This document shows positions 1-6,473 of a stretch of 33,310 bases of DNA, in pieces (position 1 is the first letter of the stretch; each line of letters opens with the position of its first letter). Where the stretch lies: contig JBHICV010000009.1 of the NCBI GenBank assembly GCA_046759765.1, positions 1-33,310 of the forward strand. The letters are read 5' to 3'. The notes beneath the pieces are model-generated. The model searched no databases, was not told the origin of the DNA, and worked only from the letters and a program-made list of their open reading frames with translations. Origin of the DNA: Acidimicrobiia bacterium (GTDB lineage Bacteria; Actinomycetota; Acidimicrobiia; Spongiisociales; CAZKJJ01). Position numbers and translations under genes: made by a program.

Positions 1-74
1 GTGGGCCGGGTGGGAATCGAACCCACGACCTTGGGATTAAAAGTCCCCTGCTCTGCCGATTGAGCTACCGGCCC
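1..74 (-). tRNA. tRNA-Lys (anticodon UUU); 3' CCA end cut by the window edge
   Basis: Reverse complement reads GGGCCGG-TA-GCTCAATCGGCAGAGC-A-GGGGA-CTTTTAA-TCCCA-AGGTC-GTGGG-TTCGATT-CCCAC-CCGGCCC-A-C: 7-bp acceptor stem, D arm, TTT anticodon, TTCGA T-loop. Confidence 0.96.
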
Positions 75-219: not shown

Positions 220-444
220 TCAGCCCCGGAGGAAGCGGATTACCACCGAAAGCACGATGCTGACCGCCACCGAGACAATCAGCATCGACGTGATCGGGAT
301 GAACACGGACGAGTTCTCGCCCTGGATGCGGATGTCCCCGGGCAGATTGCCGAACCAGGAGAAGAGTCCGGGCACAAAGCGCAGCAGCACACCCAGGAGC
401 AGCACCACAGCTCCGATCCAGATCAAGACGTCAGAGGTTCTCAT
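220..444 (-). CDS. DUF2905-like small membrane protein
   Basis: Motif FGNLPGDIRIQGENSSVFIPITSM between hydrophobic helices; ATG at 444 lies 7 nt after a TACCCT -10-like hexamer. Confidence 0.85.
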   Translation of the reverse strand: MRTSDVLIWIGAVVLLLGVLLRFVPGLFSWFGNLPGDIRIQGENSSVFIPITSMLIVSVAVSIVLSVVIRFLRG

Positions 445-497
445 TGCCCCGAGGGTACCCCTAGGCACCACTACCCCCGGCGAGGTAGGTTGCCGTC

Positions 498-3400
498 GTG
501 GGGCAGCTGAAGATTCAGCTACTCGGCGGCTTCCTCCTGGAGTGGGACGGTCGGCCGATTCCGCCTATCGCCTCCAAGGCGGGGCGGTCCCTCTTCGCCT
601 ATCTCGTCACATATCGCGACCGCGCGCCTACGCGTGACCTCCTCGCTGGCCTCTTCTGGCCGGATCAGCCCGAACCTCGAGCCAGACGGCGGCTGAGCCA
701 AGCGCTCTGGCAGATCCAGAGTGTGCTGTCGCAGGTACCCGCCGAGGAGCCTTTCTTGCTGGTGACCCCGAGCACGATCTCGTTCAACTCCGATGCTTCT
801 TACGTGCTCGATGTGGAAGAGCTGGAGCAAGGATTGGTCGGCTCCGCTGATGAGAGTCCTGACCAGCGGTATCAACAGCTCGAGGCAGCCGTCAGCCTCT
901 ACCGGGGTGACTTCCTCGCCGGTTTCTACGACGACTGGGTGCTGTCGGAGCAGCGCCGAATCAGGGACGAATACCTCACAGGAGTGGAAGAGCTTCTCCA
1001 GCTGGCCAAGAGCAGGGCCCAATTCGAGGAGGCCCTCGGCTTCGCTCACCGCCTAGCTCTCCACGATCCACTGCGTGAGGACTCCCACCAGGAGGTCATG
1101 CGGCTCGCGTACCTGATCGGCCGCTCAACCGAGGCGATCCAGCAGTACGAGCGGCTGCGTTCGATCCTGACCGAGGAGCTCGGCGTCGAGCCGTCCGAGT
1201 CCACCGAGCAGCTATACCGCGAGATTGTCTCTCGAACCGAACGGGGAACTCGCCCCTTCGCGCCGGCACCCGACTCTCCCCTCTTCGACCAGTCCGGCGT
1301 CCCATTCGTCGGGCGGGATACCGAGCGCTCGCAAGTGCTGGCTCGCATGGAGGAGGTCATGGCCGGCCGCGGTGGCCTGGTTTTGCTGGAAGGCGAAAGC
1401 GGGGTAGGGAAGAGCCGACTCCTCACCCAGCTCGCTGATGACGCACATTGGCGAGGTCTGGGTGTTCTCTGGGGCCAGTGCACAGCTACCAGTGCCCCGT
1501 TCGATCCGATTCTCGTCGCGCTGCAACATGAGCTTTCGCCGCTACGAGTACGGCAGCTCGCACAGCGAGTCGAGACCGTTTGGCTTCGTGAAGCATCAGA
1601 GCTGCTACCCCAGATCTCGGAGACACTCCAGGACCTGCCCGAGCGGATCCCTCTGCTTGCCGGGGAGGAGCCGGCCCGTACCAGAGAAGCGATTGCACGG
1701 ATTCTCCTGGGTTTGGGGGAAGTCAACCCGTATCTCGTAGTCATCGATGATCTGCATTGGTCGGATCTCGATTCGCTTCGGCTGATCGAGTCGTTGTCAG
1801 ATCGCCTGCACGCCTCCGGGATAGTTCTATGCCTGAGCTTTAGGAGCGACGACGCCCGCCAGCGAGCACCCGTTTGGGATGTGCTGCGATCGGTGGATGC
1901 CACCGGCGCGGCTCATCGGATCGTCCTGACGCCGCTTTCTGAGGTCGAGACGATCGAACTGGTCCGCCGAAGCCTGGGCGTGCCCACGGTGGCTGACGAA
2001 GCATCTCGGCTCCTATACAAGGACACCGGTGGGAACCCCCTCTTCACGCTGGAGACGCTCCGGGCCCTCCACGACCTCGAGACAACCGACTCGGTCGCTT
2101 ACCTGGCCGGGCAGGGACCGCTGCCCGTCCGCGAGGAGCTGCCCATCGCCAACACCGTGCAGGAGCTAGTGGCAGGACGGCTCGATGCGCTACCGGCATC
2201 CGTGGCAGCAGTCCTCGATACAGCCGCGGTATTCGGCGACCGCCCGGCTCTCGAAGTCCTCGCCGCCACCCCTGGACTACGTACGGTCGACCTTCTGAGC
2301 GCCGTCGACGTGATGATCCGAAGAGGGCTGCTGCGCGAGGTTGAAGGGCACCTCGAGTTCAGCCACGGGCAAGTTCGACGCGTTGCCTACGAGCGCGTGA
2401 GTGCCGCCGAGGCCAGAAAGCTTCATCGGGAGATAGGCGATGCGCTGGAGCGGACTGATTCGGGCACCGCGGGCGAGCGCGCTCATCACTTCGAGAACGG
2501 CCAGGCGTGGGACCAGGCCGTCTCTTACCACCGTCTGGCCGGCCAGGAGGCCGTTTCAGTTCATGCTTACGAGACGGCCGCTGAACATTACGGATCGGCG
2601 TCCGCGCTCGATCAGACCGCCCAAGTGTTGGAGTCTGAGCGCTTCGAGCTGTTGGCCGAGTTCGACGACGTTCTCGACGTCCTGGGTCATCGTCGGCAGC
2701 AGGCGAGCGTACTGGAGGAATTGGCAGAGTTTCCTGTCGAAGGCCCCACGTATTTGATCGATCTCCGACTTCGTCAAGCCCGAGCGTCCGGAGCGACCGG
2801 CGACCTCGACACAGCAGTCGACCTCGCGCAAGTCGCCCTCGACGCCTCCCAAGCGAACGGACTCGTACCAGAGGAGGCGCGTTCTCTGATCGCGGTGGGC
2901 ACCTATTTGGTCTGGGCCGGCCGAGCCGCCGAGGCCATTAGTCCTTTGGAAGAGGCGGTCGCATCCTCTGGAGATGATCGCGCTCGACGCAGTGAGGCCA
3001 GGCACCGGCTGGGAAGCGCTTTCGCTGAGGTGCAGCGCTACGAGGACGCCAAGCGAGTCCTGCGAGTTGCCCTCGAGGACGCCAAAGCCGGCGGCGATCT
3101 TCGGGCCCGTGCGGGCGTACTCGGCACCCTTGCCATCGCCTCTGCCGAGACGGGTGACCCTGAGGGGGCCGAGGCCACCTATGGCGAGACGCTCGCTCTT
3201 TGTCGAAGGATCGGCTATCGGCGCGGGGAAGGGGTCAACCTCGTCAACCTTGCCAACGTTCTCTACTTCCGAGGCCAGATCGGAGATGCGCTGGGCCACT
3301 ACGACGAAGCCTCGGAGATCTTCCGTCAACTAGGTGAGAGACGTGGCGAGGCGACGGTTCTGGCCAACTCCGCCTCAGTGCGGGCGAGCGTCCTAGGTGA

Positions 3401-4325
3401 TTCCGAGCGAGCAGCTGCCGACGCAGATCGAGCCAGGGCCTACTTCAAGGACTCTGGCGATCTACGCGGCGAGGCGCAGTGTCTCGGGATTCTCGCGACG
3501 GCCGAAAGGGTCGAAGGCCATCTCGCCGAAGCGCACGCATTGGCCAATGAGGGAATGGAGGAGGCGGCACAGAGCGGCAACCAGTGGATGAGCGTTCAGC
3601 TTCAGGGAACCAAGGCGAGGCTGCTACTCGATGCCGAAGACCCGGCCGAAGCGCTCGAGCTGGCACGCAAAGCCGTTGCTACCTGCGAACAGCTGGGAAT
3701 GAGCGATCTCGAGGTGAGCCTCAGAGCGATGACCGCCGAAGCGTTACTTGCTCTTGGTCGGATGACGGAGGCGCGCCAAGCGGCGGATCGGGCGGTCCAG
3801 GGTCTCCATCCAGGCGTCGAACGGCCCCATCTGGTCTGGTTCGCTGCCTCGCGAGTGCTTGAAGCCCTCGGCGAAGAGCTGCCGGCACGTGAGGCCCTTT
3901 CCCGGGCAGTGGAGGAGCTCGAGACTTCGCTGAACGGACTGGATCCCACTGACCAGGATCGCGCCCGCGCGGCCGTTCCCGAGCATCGACTGATCGTGGA
4001 GGCCTGGGAGCGCGTCCAGCCGCACCATATCCGCCAGCAAGTGGTAGGCCTGGACACCCCGACGGGCCGCCGACTCGAGGCCGAAGATATGGTCGAAATC
4101 GACTGGACCATGCCGGCACCACCGGCCGGAGGTTGGCGCAGCGAACCCGCTGGCCGGCGCGAGCTTCTCATGTCGCTCATCGAGCAGGCTCGAGCGCAGG
4201 GGGGCTCGCCGACCGTGAACGATCTTGCTCATGCTCTCGGAGTTAGCACCGCGACGGTACGCCGTGATCTGGGGATTTTGAGAGAGGAGGGAAAGAAACC
4301 GATCACGCGCGGCTCCCGCGGGTGA
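498..4325 (+). CDS. SARP-type (wHTH + BTAD) STAND ATPase transcriptional regulator with TPR repeats and a C-terminal HTH (DUF1670/DeoR-like)
   Basis: N-terminal LLGGF...LLAGLFWPD; BTAD LYRGDFLAG...DPLREDSHQEVMR; Walker A GESGVGKS; Walker B VVIDDLHW; GGNPLF; TPR-like units (GEGVNLVNLANVLYFRGQ); C-terminal HTH TVNDLAHALGVSTATVRRDL. Confidence 0.9.
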   Translation: MGQLKIQLLGGFLLEWDGRPIPPIASKAGRSLFAYLVTYRDRAPTRDLLAGLFWPDQPEPRARRRLSQALWQIQSVLSQVPAEEPFLLVTPSTISFNSDASYVLDVEELEQGLVGSADESPDQRYQQLEAAVSLYRGDFLAGFYDDWVLSEQRRIRDEYLTGVEELLQLAKSRAQFEEALGFAHRLALHDPLREDSHQEVMRLAYLIGRSTEAIQQYERLRSILTEELGVEPSESTEQLYREIVSRTERGTRPFAPAPDSPLFDQSGVPFVGRDTERSQVLARMEEVMAGRGGLVLLEGESGVGKSRLLTQLADDAHWRGLGVLWGQCTATSAPFDPILVALQHELSPLRVRQLAQRVETVWLREASELLPQISETLQDLPERIPLLAGEEPARTREAIARILLGLGEVNPYLVVIDDLHWSDLDSLRLIESLSDRLHASGIVLCLSFRSDDARQRAPVWDVLRSVDATGAAHRIVLTPLSEVETIELVRRSLGVPTVADEASRLLYKDTGGNPLFTLETLRALHDLETTDSVAYLAGQGPLPVREELPIANTVQELVAGRLDALPASVAAVLDTAAVFGDRPALEVLAATPGLRTVDLLSAVDVMIRRGLLREVEGHLEFSHGQVRRVAYERVSAAEARKLHREIGDALERTDSGTAGERAHHFENGQAWDQAVSYHRLAGQEAVSVHAYETAAEHYGSASALDQTAQVLESERFELLAEFDDVLDVLGHRRQQASVLEELAEFPVEGPTYLIDLRLRQARASGATGDLDTAVDLAQVALDASQANGLVPEEARSLIAVGTYLVWAGRAAEAISPLEEAVASSGDDRARRSEARHRLGSAFAEVQRYEDAKRVLRVALEDAKAGGDLRARAGVLGTLAIASAETGDPEGAEATYGETLALCRRIGYRRGEGVNLVNLANVLYFRGQIGDALGHYDEASEIFRQLGERRGEATVLANSASVRASVLGDSERAAADADRARAYFKDSGDLRGEAQCLGILATAERVEGHLAEAHALANEGMEEAAQSGNQWMSVQLQGTKARLLLDAEDPAEALELARKAVATCEQLGMSDLEVSLRAMTAEALLALGRMTEARQAADRAVQGLHPGVERPHLVWFAASRVLEALGEELPAREALSRAVEELETSLNGLDPTDQDRARAAVPEHRLIVEAWERVQPHHIRQQVVGLDTPTGRRLEAEDMVEIDWTMPAPPAGGWRSEPAGRRELLMSLIEQARAQGGSPTVNDLAHALGVSTATVRRDLGILREEGKKPITRGSRG

Positions 4326-4355
4326 GCGCGAGGTTCGGACCCAGGGACGGTACTT

Positions 4356-4377
4356 CTGAGACATCTCCGAGACACCT
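4356..4377 (+). promoter_or_regulatory. Two 11-bp direct repeats (CTGAGACATCT / CCGAGACACCT), candidate SARP operator
   Basis: 9/11 identical at one-helical-turn spacing, between the regulator stop and the small ORF; CATGCT (possible -10) at 4384-4389. Confidence 0.5.
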
Positions 4378-4412
4378 CCCTCTCATGCTGAGCGAAGACA
4401 AAGGAGGTTTGG

Positions 4413-4508
4413 TTGCGGAGAGCCGTCACCGTTGCGGTGCTCGTGGCGATCTCGCTGCTGGCTGCTGCTAGCCCGGCGCTTGCTGAGATCACCAACATGC
4501 ACGGTTGA
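4413..4508 (+). CDS. 31-aa secreted pro-peptide MRRAVTVAVLVAISLLAAASPALA|EITNMHG (signal peptide plus predicted heptapeptide)
   Basis: AAAGGAGG at 4400-4407, 5 nt before TTG; in-frame TGA upstream at 4389; n-region RR, hydrophobic h-region, SPALA A-X-A cleavage site; TGA at 4506-4508. Too short for the ORF track. Confidence 0.8.
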   Translation: MRRAVTVAVLVAISLLAAASPALAEITNMHG

Positions 4509-4607
4509 GTGACCCTTCGCCAAACGTCTGCCAGCTAGCCAGGGACAGATCGGTGGTCGTCACCGATCGGTGAAGTAGGCGAGGCTCGAGGGAACCCTCG
4601 CAGAAAC

Positions 4608-4637
4608 GACCGGGCGTGGCCGCTGCCGCGCCCGGTC
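4608..4637 (+). terminator. 13-bp GC-rich hairpin, possible terminator of the peptide transcript
   Basis: GACCGGGCGTGGC-cgct-GCCGCGCCCGGTC (one G-U pair), followed by a weak pyrimidine tract. Confidence 0.5.
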
Positions 4638-4670
4638 CTCTCGTGTGCGACGGCTGATAGCTTTCGCGTC

Positions 4671-6473
4671 ATGATCCGCTTCGGGATCTCAGGCCTGCCT
4701 CCTGAGGGTATGGGCGACTCGGTCTTTCTAGGCGACCTCTCCGAGCGCGGGCACAAGGCCTACGAGCTCGCTTTTGTTACCGAGTTTCCATGGAAGCCCA
4801 AGCGATGCCGAGAGTTCGGCGAGGCGGCGGTTGAACACGACATCTGGCTGTCCGCCCACGCTCCTTACTTTGCTGTTCTGACTCCGGAAGACGAGGACCG
4901 TGCCAAGCAGTGCCGAGCGGCCCTTGAGCACACGATCAAGCTCGGTCGGGAGCTCGGCGCACGAGTCATCGTCGCCCATTTGGGCGCCACTCACGACGAG
5001 ACACCTGAGGCTCTTCTTGATCGGGTCCGCCGGCATCTCGATTGGATCGGCACCAAGGCGGGCCACCTGGGAGTTGGACTCGGTCTCGAAACGGCCGGAA
5101 AGGCCTCGTCGTTCGGCAGCCTCGGCGACATCGCACTTCTCGCCGAGGAGTTTCCCTTCGTACGCCCCGTAGTCGACTGGGCTCACGTCCACGCCATGTC
5201 GGGCGGTGCGCTGACCTCACCGGAAGCGTTCGTAGCCGTTATCGAGTTTCTCCGGGACCAATTCCCCGGCTGGATGATCGATCCACTGCACTGCCAGTTC
5301 ACGGACAACGAGTTCGGTCCTTCGGGTGAGATACGTCATGTTCCCTATGGGACGGGCTCACTAGCGGTCGGACCCCTCGTTCAGGCCGCTCGTGAGACAG
5401 GGCTCAGGATGACGCTCATCTCCGAGGCCCGAGAGGACGAGAGCCACGAAGCGATCGCTCTGGAGCTCGGTGAGGCCGAGGCTTCTGATGAAATTCAGGA
5501 GGGCGAGGGTCGCTTACTCGGATCAGGCCGGATCGAATTTCCGGACCTGATCAGGGTGACCTCCGACGGATCATCGTTCGTAGCGCTCGATCTCGAACGT
5601 CCCCTTGTTCTTTCCAACGTCGACAAGCCCTTCTTCCCTGATGGTTACACCAAGGGCGACCTGATTCAGTTTTATGAATCGATTGCGCCCCTGCTACTGC
5701 CTCATCTCTCCGACCGGGCGATCGTGATGGCACGCTTTCCCGACGGAGCGGAGGGCCACTACTTCTACGAGAAACAGGCCCCAGGACACCAGCCCTCCTG
5801 GATGGTCAAGGCGCCTCTGTATTCCTCCGTGAGATCCGCGCCAATCGAGTTCCTCATGGCACCCGATCGGGAATCGCTCATGTGGTTTGCCAACATGGCC
5901 TGCATCGAGATCCACCCCTGGCTGTCGAAAGTCTCGGCTTCGGATCGTCCTAATTACGCCGTGTTCGATCTCGACCCGGCCGAGGGAGCTACTTGGGAGC
6001 AGGTGGTGTCCGTCGCCCAGCTGGTGCGGGTAGCACTCGAGAACCTCGGCCTCGAGGGCGTGCCCAAGACGTCGGGAGCGTCCGGCATCCACATCTATGT
6101 TCCACTCGAGCCGGAATACGACTATGCACGGGTAAGGGGCTTCGTTGAGGCCACCGGCAGGTTGCTGGCGAAGGCCAATCCCGACGATGTGACTATGGAG
6201 TGGGACATACCGAAGCGGGCAGGCCGGGTCTTCATCGACCACAACCAGAACGTCGCCGGCAAGACCATCGCCTCCGTCTATTCCGTCCGTCCCCTCTCGG
6301 GAGCTCCCGTATCAACCCCGATCCTCTGGGAGGAGCTGGACACGGTGCATCCAGGGGACTTCACCATGGCCACGATCTGGGACCGGGTGCAGCGCTACGG
6401 TGACCTCTTTGCCCCGGCACTGCGCGGCGAGCAACGGCTGGAGGCGGCGGAGCACCGGCTCGGGCTTGCATAA
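4671..6473 (+). CDS. Fusion of endonuclease IV-like (AP endonuclease 2) TIM barrel and LigD-type primase-polymerase (PolDom)
   Basis: N-half has HAPY, HLG, ETAG, DWAH, HCQ, RH and terminal E Zn-ligand-like motifs. C-half has LSNVDKPFFP..YTKGDL, RFPDG, FYEK, EIHPW, FDLDP, KTSGASGIH, FIDHNQN, YSVRP. Confidence 0.88.
   Translation: MIRFGISGLPPEGMGDSVFLGDLSERGHKAYELAFVTEFPWKPKRCREFGEAAVEHDIWLSAHAPYFAVLTPEDEDRAKQCRAALEHTIKLGRELGARVIVAHLGATHDETPEALLDRVRRHLDWIGTKAGHLGVGLGLETAGKASSFGSLGDIALLAEEFPFVRPVVDWAHVHAMSGGALTSPEAFVAVIEFLRDQFPGWMIDPLHCQFTDNEFGPSGEIRHVPYGTGSLAVGPLVQAARETGLRMTLISEAREDESHEAIALELGEAEASDEIQEGEGRLLGSGRIEFPDLIRVTSDGSSFVALDLERPLVLSNVDKPFFPDGYTKGDLIQFYESIAPLLLPHLSDRAIVMARFPDGAEGHYFYEKQAPGHQPSWMVKAPLYSSVRSAPIEFLMAPDRESLMWFANMACIEIHPWLSKVSASDRPNYAVFDLDPAEGATWEQVVSVAQLVRVALENLGLEGVPKTSGASGIHIYVPLEPEYDYARVRGFVEATGRLLAKANPDDVTMEWDIPKRAGRVFIDHNQNVAGKTIASVYSVRPLSGAPVSTPILWEELDTVHPGDFTMATIWDRVQRYGDLFAPALRGEQRLEAAEHRLGLA

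Follow-up and report, generated by a model that had tools for sequence, protein, structure and literature searches.

The window analysed here is the whole stretch of 33,310 nucleotides (nt) of contig JBHICV010000009.1 from an Acidimicrobiia bacterium (assembly GCA_046759765.1). Near its left end it carries the gene of a large regulator of 1275 amino acids (aa) and, on the same strand, a gene of only 31 codons, which is predicted to encode a secreted pre-peptide. An earlier note, made from the DNA letters alone, had described a 1275-aa regulator of the order wHTH-BTAD-AAA-TPR-HTH, a 31-codon open reading frame (ORF) 87 bp past its stop codon, a Shine-Dalgarno sequence 5 nt before a TTG start and hairpins behind the small ORF. 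All four elements were found again, the regulator domains by Pfam, and the locus is organised as follows:

498..4325, forward strand: receptor/regulator, 1275 aa (ORF and Pfam; EmbR/AfsR structure matches; motif conservation; AlphaFold2 (AF2) model)
3246..3257, forward strand: codons of N917, a near-invariant Asn, to N920, the co-varying residue (ortholog alignment, co-variation)
3366-3368, forward strand: codon of N957, the second near-invariant Asn (ortholog alignment)
4323..4334, forward strand: upstream operator box A (TGAGCG-x-AGGT), overlapping the TGA stop of the regulator (promoter alignment)
4357..4374, forward strand: SARP-type box covering the -35 region, made up of the direct repeats TGAGACA-N4-C-GAGACA, period 11 bp (position weight matrix (PWM), geometry)
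4384..4389, forward strand: -10 element CATGCT (across 75 windows, position 2 is A in 93% and position 6 is T in 88%)
4400..4407, forward strand: Shine-Dalgarno sequence AAAGGAGG, 5 nt before TTG
4413..4484, forward strand: signal peptide of 24 codons with basic n-region, h-region and P-A-L-A cleavage motif (translation, ortholog alignment)
4485..4508, forward strand: predicted mature peptide EITNMHG plus stop (translation, ortholog tails)
4547..4675, forward strand: hairpin series behind the peptide gene, with the strongest hairpin (-29.6 kcal/mol) near 4608-4637 (folding; similar layout in the closest relative)

In the following, G000 denotes the genome of the window, G001 its closest relative, and L-numbers denote loci.

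The small ORF (4413-4508) starts 87 nt behind the regulator and encodes the 31-aa product MRRAVTVAVLVAISLLAAASPALA-EITNMHG. The n/h/c pattern of a signal peptide was recognised by heuristics and alignment, and secretion via Sec is predicted from it. In 83 aligned pre-peptides, Ala at position -1 of the cleavage site is invariant, and Ala at position -3 is at least 90% conserved. An ORF resembling signal peptidase I was read by eye on G000:C145. The pre-peptide matched no family of Pfam, NCBIfam or the ESM Atlas, where the best score of 0.81 is a lead only.

Other classes of product were considered and dismissed. Export via Tat was ruled out, the twin Arg often being KR or RK, and a lipoprotein was ruled out, no Cys being seen at the cleavage site. 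A precursor of a ribosomally synthesised, modified peptide was likewise rejected: the match to HaaT was weak and far below the cut-off, and no modifying enzymes occurred among the window genes scanned.

The regulator possesses the large SARP/STAND architecture. Pfam assigns BTAD (aa 110-243), AAA_16 (aa 269-439), TPR_12 (six stretches) and HTH_DeoR (aa 1233-1271). The SARP domain, consisting of winged helix and BTAD, comprises about aa 1-245, and the motifs of a STAND NTPase (Walker A at aa 299, Walker B at aa 413, GxP at aa 511, His motif at aa 621) are present and can be recognised in the most frequent variants of an alignment of 83-87 orthologs, too. A C-terminal TPR sensor, a superhelix of about aa 660-1175, is followed by a linker and the DeoR-like helix-turn-helix (HTH). 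For the N-terminal 701 aa, the matching solved structures are EmbR and AfsR; with a score of 81.7 the protein lies far below the 1430-bit cut-off of the AfsR equivalog NF053617. In sequence, the TPR region matches AfsR with an E value of 8e-21 and RapJ with 6e-10, and LGN and AfsR are closer than RapJ.

An AF2 model of aa 661-1275 (pLDDT 94) consists of the TPR superhelix plus the HTH. Structural alignment of the TPR model gave Z 24.9 with Rap phi105-ERPVGT (root-mean-square deviation 3.7, 338 residues aligned), Z 23.5 with NprR-NprX, Z 20.2 with AimR and Z 23.6 with the sensor domain III of MalT (deviation 3.9 over 349 residues). As modelled, the TPR region shows a fold of the peptide-binding type, which is not evidence of RRNPP ancestry. 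Two residues of this region are nearly invariant among orthologs (N917, 98%; N957, 95%).

The hairpin series behind the peptide gene is likely a terminator or an RNA-stabilising element. A simple terminator scan did not call these hairpins because they lack a T run, and a search of Rfam at gathering score over 7 loci matched only a tRNA and nothing in the hairpins. As a whole, the 355-nt region folds modestly better than shuffled sequences (z -1.95). Clade-specific, conserved hairpin arrays of about 100-170 nt were also seen 3' of the peptide stop in L026, L047, L020 and their relatives. A shared downstream small RNA (sRNA), comparable to an AimX-like output, was considered and rejected: by eye, the hairpins are conserved within clades and not across them.

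Conservation, selection and co-variation of the pair

A family profile built from the C-terminal 480 aa of the regulator matched 101 of 401 genomes of the host's own order (E<=1e-30, the weakest rows being TPR-only paralogs) and 35 of 401 genomes of its class (1e-60), only one of which lies outside the order. In a sample of the phylum, 13 of 401 genomes were matched (1e-40), including 8 of 19 of one family outside the class. The order and class tallies take in the unpublished genome G195, and the phylum tally takes in the unpublished G662. A scan of genome contigs with four receptors of the extra-class family led to named Egicoccus and Nitriliruptoraceae relatives of the same phylum, Actinomycetota; it yielded three loci, one of which (L170) is a weak, unrelated TPR match. 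Single-protein scans of genome contigs and of viral contigs found no relative, and the single query made for a phage location gave no sign of one.

The ortholog set comprised 107 loci from 94 genomes, with same-place duplicates, the G662 locus and loci ending before the regulator stop left out. In 98 of them, a signal-peptide ORF of 29-34 aa with a variable tail of 5-8 aa follows the regulator; such a small ORF, with its Shine-Dalgarno sequence, is what the earlier note had expected of homologs. The starts of several of these pre-peptides were set by hand, and L168 was not counted separately, its peptide duplicating one already in the set. The gap between the two genes has a median of 101 nt and a maximum of 225 nt. 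A fixed filter, which was tuned on the family and asks for an ORF of 28-37 aa with a Shine-Dalgarno-like motif, a basic n-region, an h-region and A-x-A at 5-8 residues before its end, fires at 96 of the 107 loci and at one of 703 long ORFs of G000, namely the focal one. Comparison of these loci confirms the pairing of regulator and peptide gene as real and conserved. Four further loci (L082, L123, L127 and L129, from two lineages) have short ORFs which retain the tail and lack the signal sequence. In L042, a secreted protein takes the place of the pre-peptide, and L042/L066 carry this long ORF (821 aa, RTX and PKD repeats) behind the same promoter.

Two further observations concern the state of the genes. 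In L204 (G277:C68), the regulator end and the full promoter are followed by a degenerated peptide ORF directly before a kinase-like gene, and the same genome holds a second cassette with the tail SVVNIH. In genus g8 (L051, L052, L053, L149, L150), the regulator is frameshifted in several genomes and the peptide is intact, which may be an assembly error.

The pattern of substitutions indicates that the small ORF is under purifying selection. Between the window and G001 (tail EITHMHG), whose receptor and peptide lie on two contigs joined through the last residues of the regulator, 11 differences are synonymous and 2 non-synonymous. Among 25 sister pairs of the receptor tree, three were without a signal-bearing ORF in at least one member and one had a different cleavage motif; in the remaining 21, the ratio of non-synonymous to synonymous differences (pN/pS) was 0.30 in the signal portion and 0.27 in the tail. 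These values replaced a first estimate (0.23 and 0.26), which was biased because the pairs had been chosen by peptide identity. Deep pairs keep the tail while the signal drifts (non-synonymous changes 16.8 vs 0 in L133/L134 and 8.3 vs 0 in L121/L122).

Across clades, 59 distinct tails were found, e.g. SISDMS, AVVNIR, ILRPGH, NGNWGS, TGDFHR and GIKNLGL, and in one family, several genomes possess a pair of paralogs that differ in tail type. In comparison to its sister L030, L082 has lost exactly the signal codons; Shine-Dalgarno sequence, ATG and LRPGH are kept, and the ORF reads MLRPGHGPS. Furthermore, L129 shows three tandem tail-like ORFs of 13 aa, and in L123 the tail is duplicated internally.

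The earlier note had anticipated that tails would co-vary with residues of the TPR pocket, and residue 920 does track tail position 4, agreeing in 88 of 95 rows. It is the best column for N/D at this position (phi 0.85, the next one 0.71): 42 rows combine N/D with N920 and 46 combine another residue with non-N, and no row combines another residue with N. Seven predictions written beforehand all held (non-N in G001, G351, G315, G289 and G232; N in L226 and L169). G919, found later, fits as well (tail GVRNI, read by eye from DNA, with N920). A natural sister contrast is given by the window (EITNMHG/N920) and G001 (EITHMHG/S920). In addition, positions assigned to the concave face by TPR numbering are more specific for tail groups than positions elsewhere (0.35 vs 0.21) and make up 10 of the top 25, with 3.4 expected.

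Promoter, predicted regulon and distant homologs

The small gene is preceded by a promoter which is shared within the family. The consensus of the repeats is TGAGAYA-N4-N-GAGACA with an 11-bp period, and the -10 element follows nine bases further on; when the -10 elements are aligned, conserved bases lie at about -40 to -33 and -29 to -22. The afs box of AfsR has this repeat geometry over the -35 region (PMC10936776). Box A (TGAGCG/TGACGG...AGGT) is mostly located 33-37 nt before the first repeat; in L123, L127 and L129 it was duplicated along with the promoter, away from the stop codon. It is a candidate site for the C-terminal HTH. Co-variation of the C-terminal HTH with box A, or of the recognition helix with the repeat, was only partly consistent. 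A generic sigma-70 scan returned nothing at the window's own promoter.

A PWM was built on 75 promoters of other genomes and did not include box A. In G000 it ranked the window's own site first (34.5), followed by three sites with 25.5, 23.3 and 22.7 and then by 17.8; the reversed G000 control had no site above 15. Box A stands beside all three additional sites (chance about 0.4% each). The site on C183 stands before an EAL-domain gene and that on C145 before a patatin gene; no clear gene follows the one on C274. Promoter-like copies before EAL genes also occur in L168, L169 and L271. Pfam analysis of 14 selected downstream ORFs identified HisKA-HATPase genes behind the peptide gene in five cases (L111, L050, L159, L164, L165). 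A strict bipartite pattern was present in 53 of 401 genomes and in none of the reversed control; 51 of these 53 genomes are receptor-positive in the order tally, a comparison which is largely circular. The pattern count takes in G195 as well; apart from it and the three profile tallies, no count includes unpublished genomes.

Several single sites were also recorded. The patatin gene with the full promoter (G000:C145:4456-5445, reverse strand) is a predicted regulon site. At G000:C274:329, the full promoter faces the 3' end of a convergent histidine-kinase gene, so that a possible sRNA may be considered. Strong promoter copies away from regulators lie before an ECF sigma factor-like gene (by eye) in L207 (G187:C171) and before an uncharacterised ORF of 256 aa in L209 (G011:C14). 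In L129 / L212 (G069:C13), L123 and L127, a conserved non-coding element, rich in GC and with CTCCGCTAGGGC at its end, lies behind the first copy of the duplicated promoter and is found again between the signal-less peptide ORFs. In L129 there follows a secreted ORF that appears lysozyme/Rpf-like by eye and had no Pfam match at 1e-4.

The regulator belongs to a large family, with 121 library or cluster proteins possessing a C-terminal HTH in the tree. A clade of 36 rows contains members named Anaerolineae, Thermoflexia and Chloroflexi, and a further clade of 22 rows has one member named Acidimicrobiales. A metagenome scan with nine Chloroflexota-like receptors yielded 41 loci; three were of the short-peptide type (L226, L246 and the truncated L227), two were without the regulator end and three were near-duplicates, which left 33. 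The same repeat plus -10 element was present in 21 of these 33, and N917 is lost in several Chloroflexota-like receptors.

The peptide may derive from a long secreted protein, since distant homologs use the same promoter for such proteins. On the unrooted tree, the simplest history would be that the regulator first activated a secreted gene next to it and that, in actinobacteria, this target was reduced to a signal peptide plus tail. The earlier note had named a long secreted protein downstream of homologs as the case in which the small ORF would be a truncated remnant. Such proteins do occur, in the Chloroflexota-like clade and in L042/L066, but the remnant does not follow from them: they bear on origin and not on decay, given the purifying selection on the short form.

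In 15 of the 41 loci (by pattern), a protein of 56-80 aa with an F-V-V-R-I-W strand was noticed. It lies between the regulator and the long secreted protein (S-F-V-V-R-I-W...W-R-G-W-V-Q-H; L222-L262, e.g. L237:8781-8996) and was found neither in G000 nor among the actinobacterial loci. It consists of three strands plus a helix, without a Pfam or NCBIfam family and with a best structural Z of 4.0, which is no clear fold match. This protein is possibly an ancestral partner of the TPR region. The strand resembles tails such as AVVNIR.

Regarding the neighbouring genes, a tRNA-Lys(TTT) gene (1-74, reverse strand) and a DUF2905 gene (220-471, reverse strand) are divergent from the regulator. Downstream (4671-6473, forward strand), Pfam identifies an AP_endonuc_2 TIM barrel fused to a LigD primase-polymerase domain; the same gene appears to lie behind the cassette in G001, too.

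Proposed mechanism and alternative explanations

The two genes probably constitute a peptide-sensing circuit on an AfsR-like STAND switch, with export, re-import and TPR binding of the peptide. The regulator would bind the 11-bp repeats via its N-terminal SARP winged helix, and probably box A via its C-terminal HTH, and would drive the small gene plus a few targets in trans. The 31-aa product would be exported by Sec, and a single cut by signal peptidase after P-A-L-A would release EITNMHG, which might return via an importer of the Opp/Dpp type. In the TPR groove, the backbone of the peptide may be held by N917 and N957 and its position 4 read by residue 920, and binding would alter the nucleotide state of the STAND module. 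In AfsR, the NOD and TPR domains inhibit the SARP domain (PMC10936776). Because this is the default state there, activation with positive feedback, i.e. density sensing, is the moderately preferred sign. The outputs would mostly be signalling genes such as EAL phosphodiesterases and histidine kinases.

Importer families of the Opp/Dpp type, for which the earlier note had proposed a search, are present in G000 (9 matches to SBP_bac_5 and 8 to oligo_HPY, at least one of the substrate-binding protein matches being fused inside a cytoplasmic AAA protein). Pairing, tail co-variation and importers support, at the level of sequence, that note's reading as an analogous communication system on a SARP-STAND receptor. 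As a separate observation, G000:C68:5558-9214 encodes a protein of 1219 aa with an adenylate cyclase-like N-terminus (by eye), an AAA module and, at its C-terminus, an SBP_bac_5 domain; the protein is STAND-like and its sensor belongs to a peptide-binding family.

A number of results weigh against a peptide-sensing circuit. The peptide ORF of L125 is interrupted after 14 codons, and L100, L106 and L147 have nothing similar, neither peptide nor promoter; the clades with AVVNIR and GDFHR lack the canonical repeat. The pre-peptide filter detected no short pre-peptide in the 33 Chloroflexota-like loci. Many of these carry long signal-peptide proteins behind the same promoter, and the regulator family can therefore work without a short peptide. 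Opp systems are common, so that the presence of importers is weak evidence. The structural matches of the TPR model are generic, as APPBP2-degron (Z 26.4) and LGN (Z 24.3) rival Rap, and among the Foldseek matches listed, mostly LGN/Pins and other eukaryotic TPR proteins, there was no RRNPP receptor. The tail-group specificity of the concave face could hold for any ligand. Seven of the 95 rows have N/D at tail position 4 without N920, and four of the seven predicted cases fall in one clade. Moreover, linked genes share their history: a test on independent pairs, with 5 pairs on well-supported branches, gave on average 4.5 concordant and 0 opposite pairs (median p 0.0625, not significant), and with only 5 pairs it cannot reach 0.05.

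The tail might also be the receptor ligand in a cell-autonomous circuit, in which the pre-peptide binds while still in the cytoplasm and is withdrawn by Sec export. Such a circuit would gauge secretion capacity, or be a timer or bistable switch, and would not count neighbours. The four loci in two lineages that hold the tail without a signal peptide are in favour of it, and the control of long secreted proteins by Chloroflexota-like regulators fits a secretion monitor. However, 59 distinct tails across clades are more in keeping with private channels than with an internal gauge, the cleavage motif has been conserved, and leaderless signal peptides, known for RopB, can still act between cells (PMC10518010); we regard this explanation as unlikely. 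Quite unlikely, in our view, is a peptide that serves as an output of the regulator only and has its target elsewhere, e.g. a surface receptor or the product of a downstream gene for a membrane or PAS histidine kinase. Several clades do have HisKA-HATPase genes behind the peptide gene and on its strand, and linkage alone explains the congruence of tail and receptor on the tree. The downstream genes, however, are not conserved and often convergent while the regulator is constant, the kinases checked showed just PAS, HisKA and HATPase domains, and the residue-level co-change sits in the TPR groove of the regulator.

Long secreted ORFs behind the same promoter, as in L042/L066 and the Chloroflexota-like clade, could suggest that the ORF is a functionless truncated remnant of such a gene. 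This is contradicted by the selection signal, with pN/pS of about 0.3 including the tail and the closest pair as given above, and by a length fixed at 29-34 aa in 98 loci of two classes, and we consider it very improbable. Size, hydrophobicity and downstream hairpins would also suit a membrane micro-protein of about 30 aa, type I toxin-like or other, whose gene is followed by structured RNA. Here, the conserved cleavage motif of the P-x-A-x-A type, the existence of versions without hydrophobic segment and the absence of Pfam and NCBIfam matches, and of Rfam matches (7 loci) other than the tRNA, make the proposal hardly credible.

Comparison with known systems

A full-text literature search, with most subscription journals and supplements outside it, found no SARP/STAND receptor with a secreted peptide. 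Signals of Actinomycetota were described in 2023 as typically enzyme-made small molecules (PMC10075063), and a 2016 review states that there were no reports of quorum sensing for the classes Acidimicrobiia and Nitriliruptoria (PMC4748050). On balance, we favour the view that the cassette represents an undescribed, multi-allelic family of peptide quorum sensing in Actinomycetota, independent of RRNPP, in which a STAND (NLR-like) SARP activator was turned into the reader of a peptide of 5-8 residues from a trimmed secreted gene. If this is true, it would provide the first peptide ligand for an AfsR-class regulator, dozens of codes with paralogous channels per genome, leaderless and duplicated variants, and outputs via c-di-GMP and kinases. 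The pair EITNMHG/N920 and EITHMHG/S920 would be a ready natural test of specificity, and the dozens of alleles could serve as orthogonal inducers in actinobacterial expression systems.

The AfsR-afsS system of Streptomyces has the same order of SARP, NOD and TPR, a pair of 11-bp direct repeats that covers the -35 region, and a small target gene, afsS adjoining afsR. Unlike AfsR, the regulator described here has an extra C-terminal HTH and a second operator box, and its target is a secreted pre-peptide. To our knowledge, no signal is established for the TPR sensor of AfsR-type STAND regulators. What this sensor responds to becomes testable here with a synthetic 7-mer, since ligand, receptor residue and promoter are all named. 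The main text of the AfsR paper does not contain the word 'ligand' (PMC10936776).

The STAND activator MalT of E. coli possesses a TPR-like sensor domain of the same shape. MalT is a ligand-gated switch with a LuxR-type HTH which senses maltotriose; no peptide gene is associated with it, unlike the cassette. The very short, Met-started peptides without signal sequence in L082, L123, L127 and L129 resemble RopB-LCP (PMC10518010). RopB-LCP uses Rgg-type receptors in Firmicutes, whereas leaderless forms are a minority here (4 of 102 peptide-bearing loci).

Rap-Phr, NprR-NprX, PlcR-PapR and AimR-AimP likewise combine a TPR receptor with an adjacent small gene for a pro-peptide, of the Sec type there and of a predicted Sec type here. 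The published RRNPP signature comprises a pro-peptide of 10-100 aa, Sec/SPI export, a receptor of 250-500 aa, TPRs and genes -60 to 400 bp apart (PMC10075063). Three of these five features are found at the locus (31-aa pro-peptide, TPRs, adjacency with 87 nt), and the receptor exceeds the length range. Further similarities to RRNPP(A) are the many alleles, whole-gene and internal duplications of the peptide, and the overlay of the TPR model on Rap, NprR and AimR; duplications of phr and nprX are already known (PMC5199041). RRNPPA is described as a family of Bacillota (PMC12700828). The present host lies outside this phylum, the receptor of 1275 aa carries SARP, STAND ATPase and a second HTH, its TPR sequence is nearer to AfsR than to RapJ, and a single signal-peptidase cut would free the mature peptide, which also sets it apart. 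The published RRNPP detector would skip this family because it limits receptors to 250-500 aa by default. Judged from its sequence, the cassette would work like RRNPP systems on a different class of receptor and is not a member of that family.

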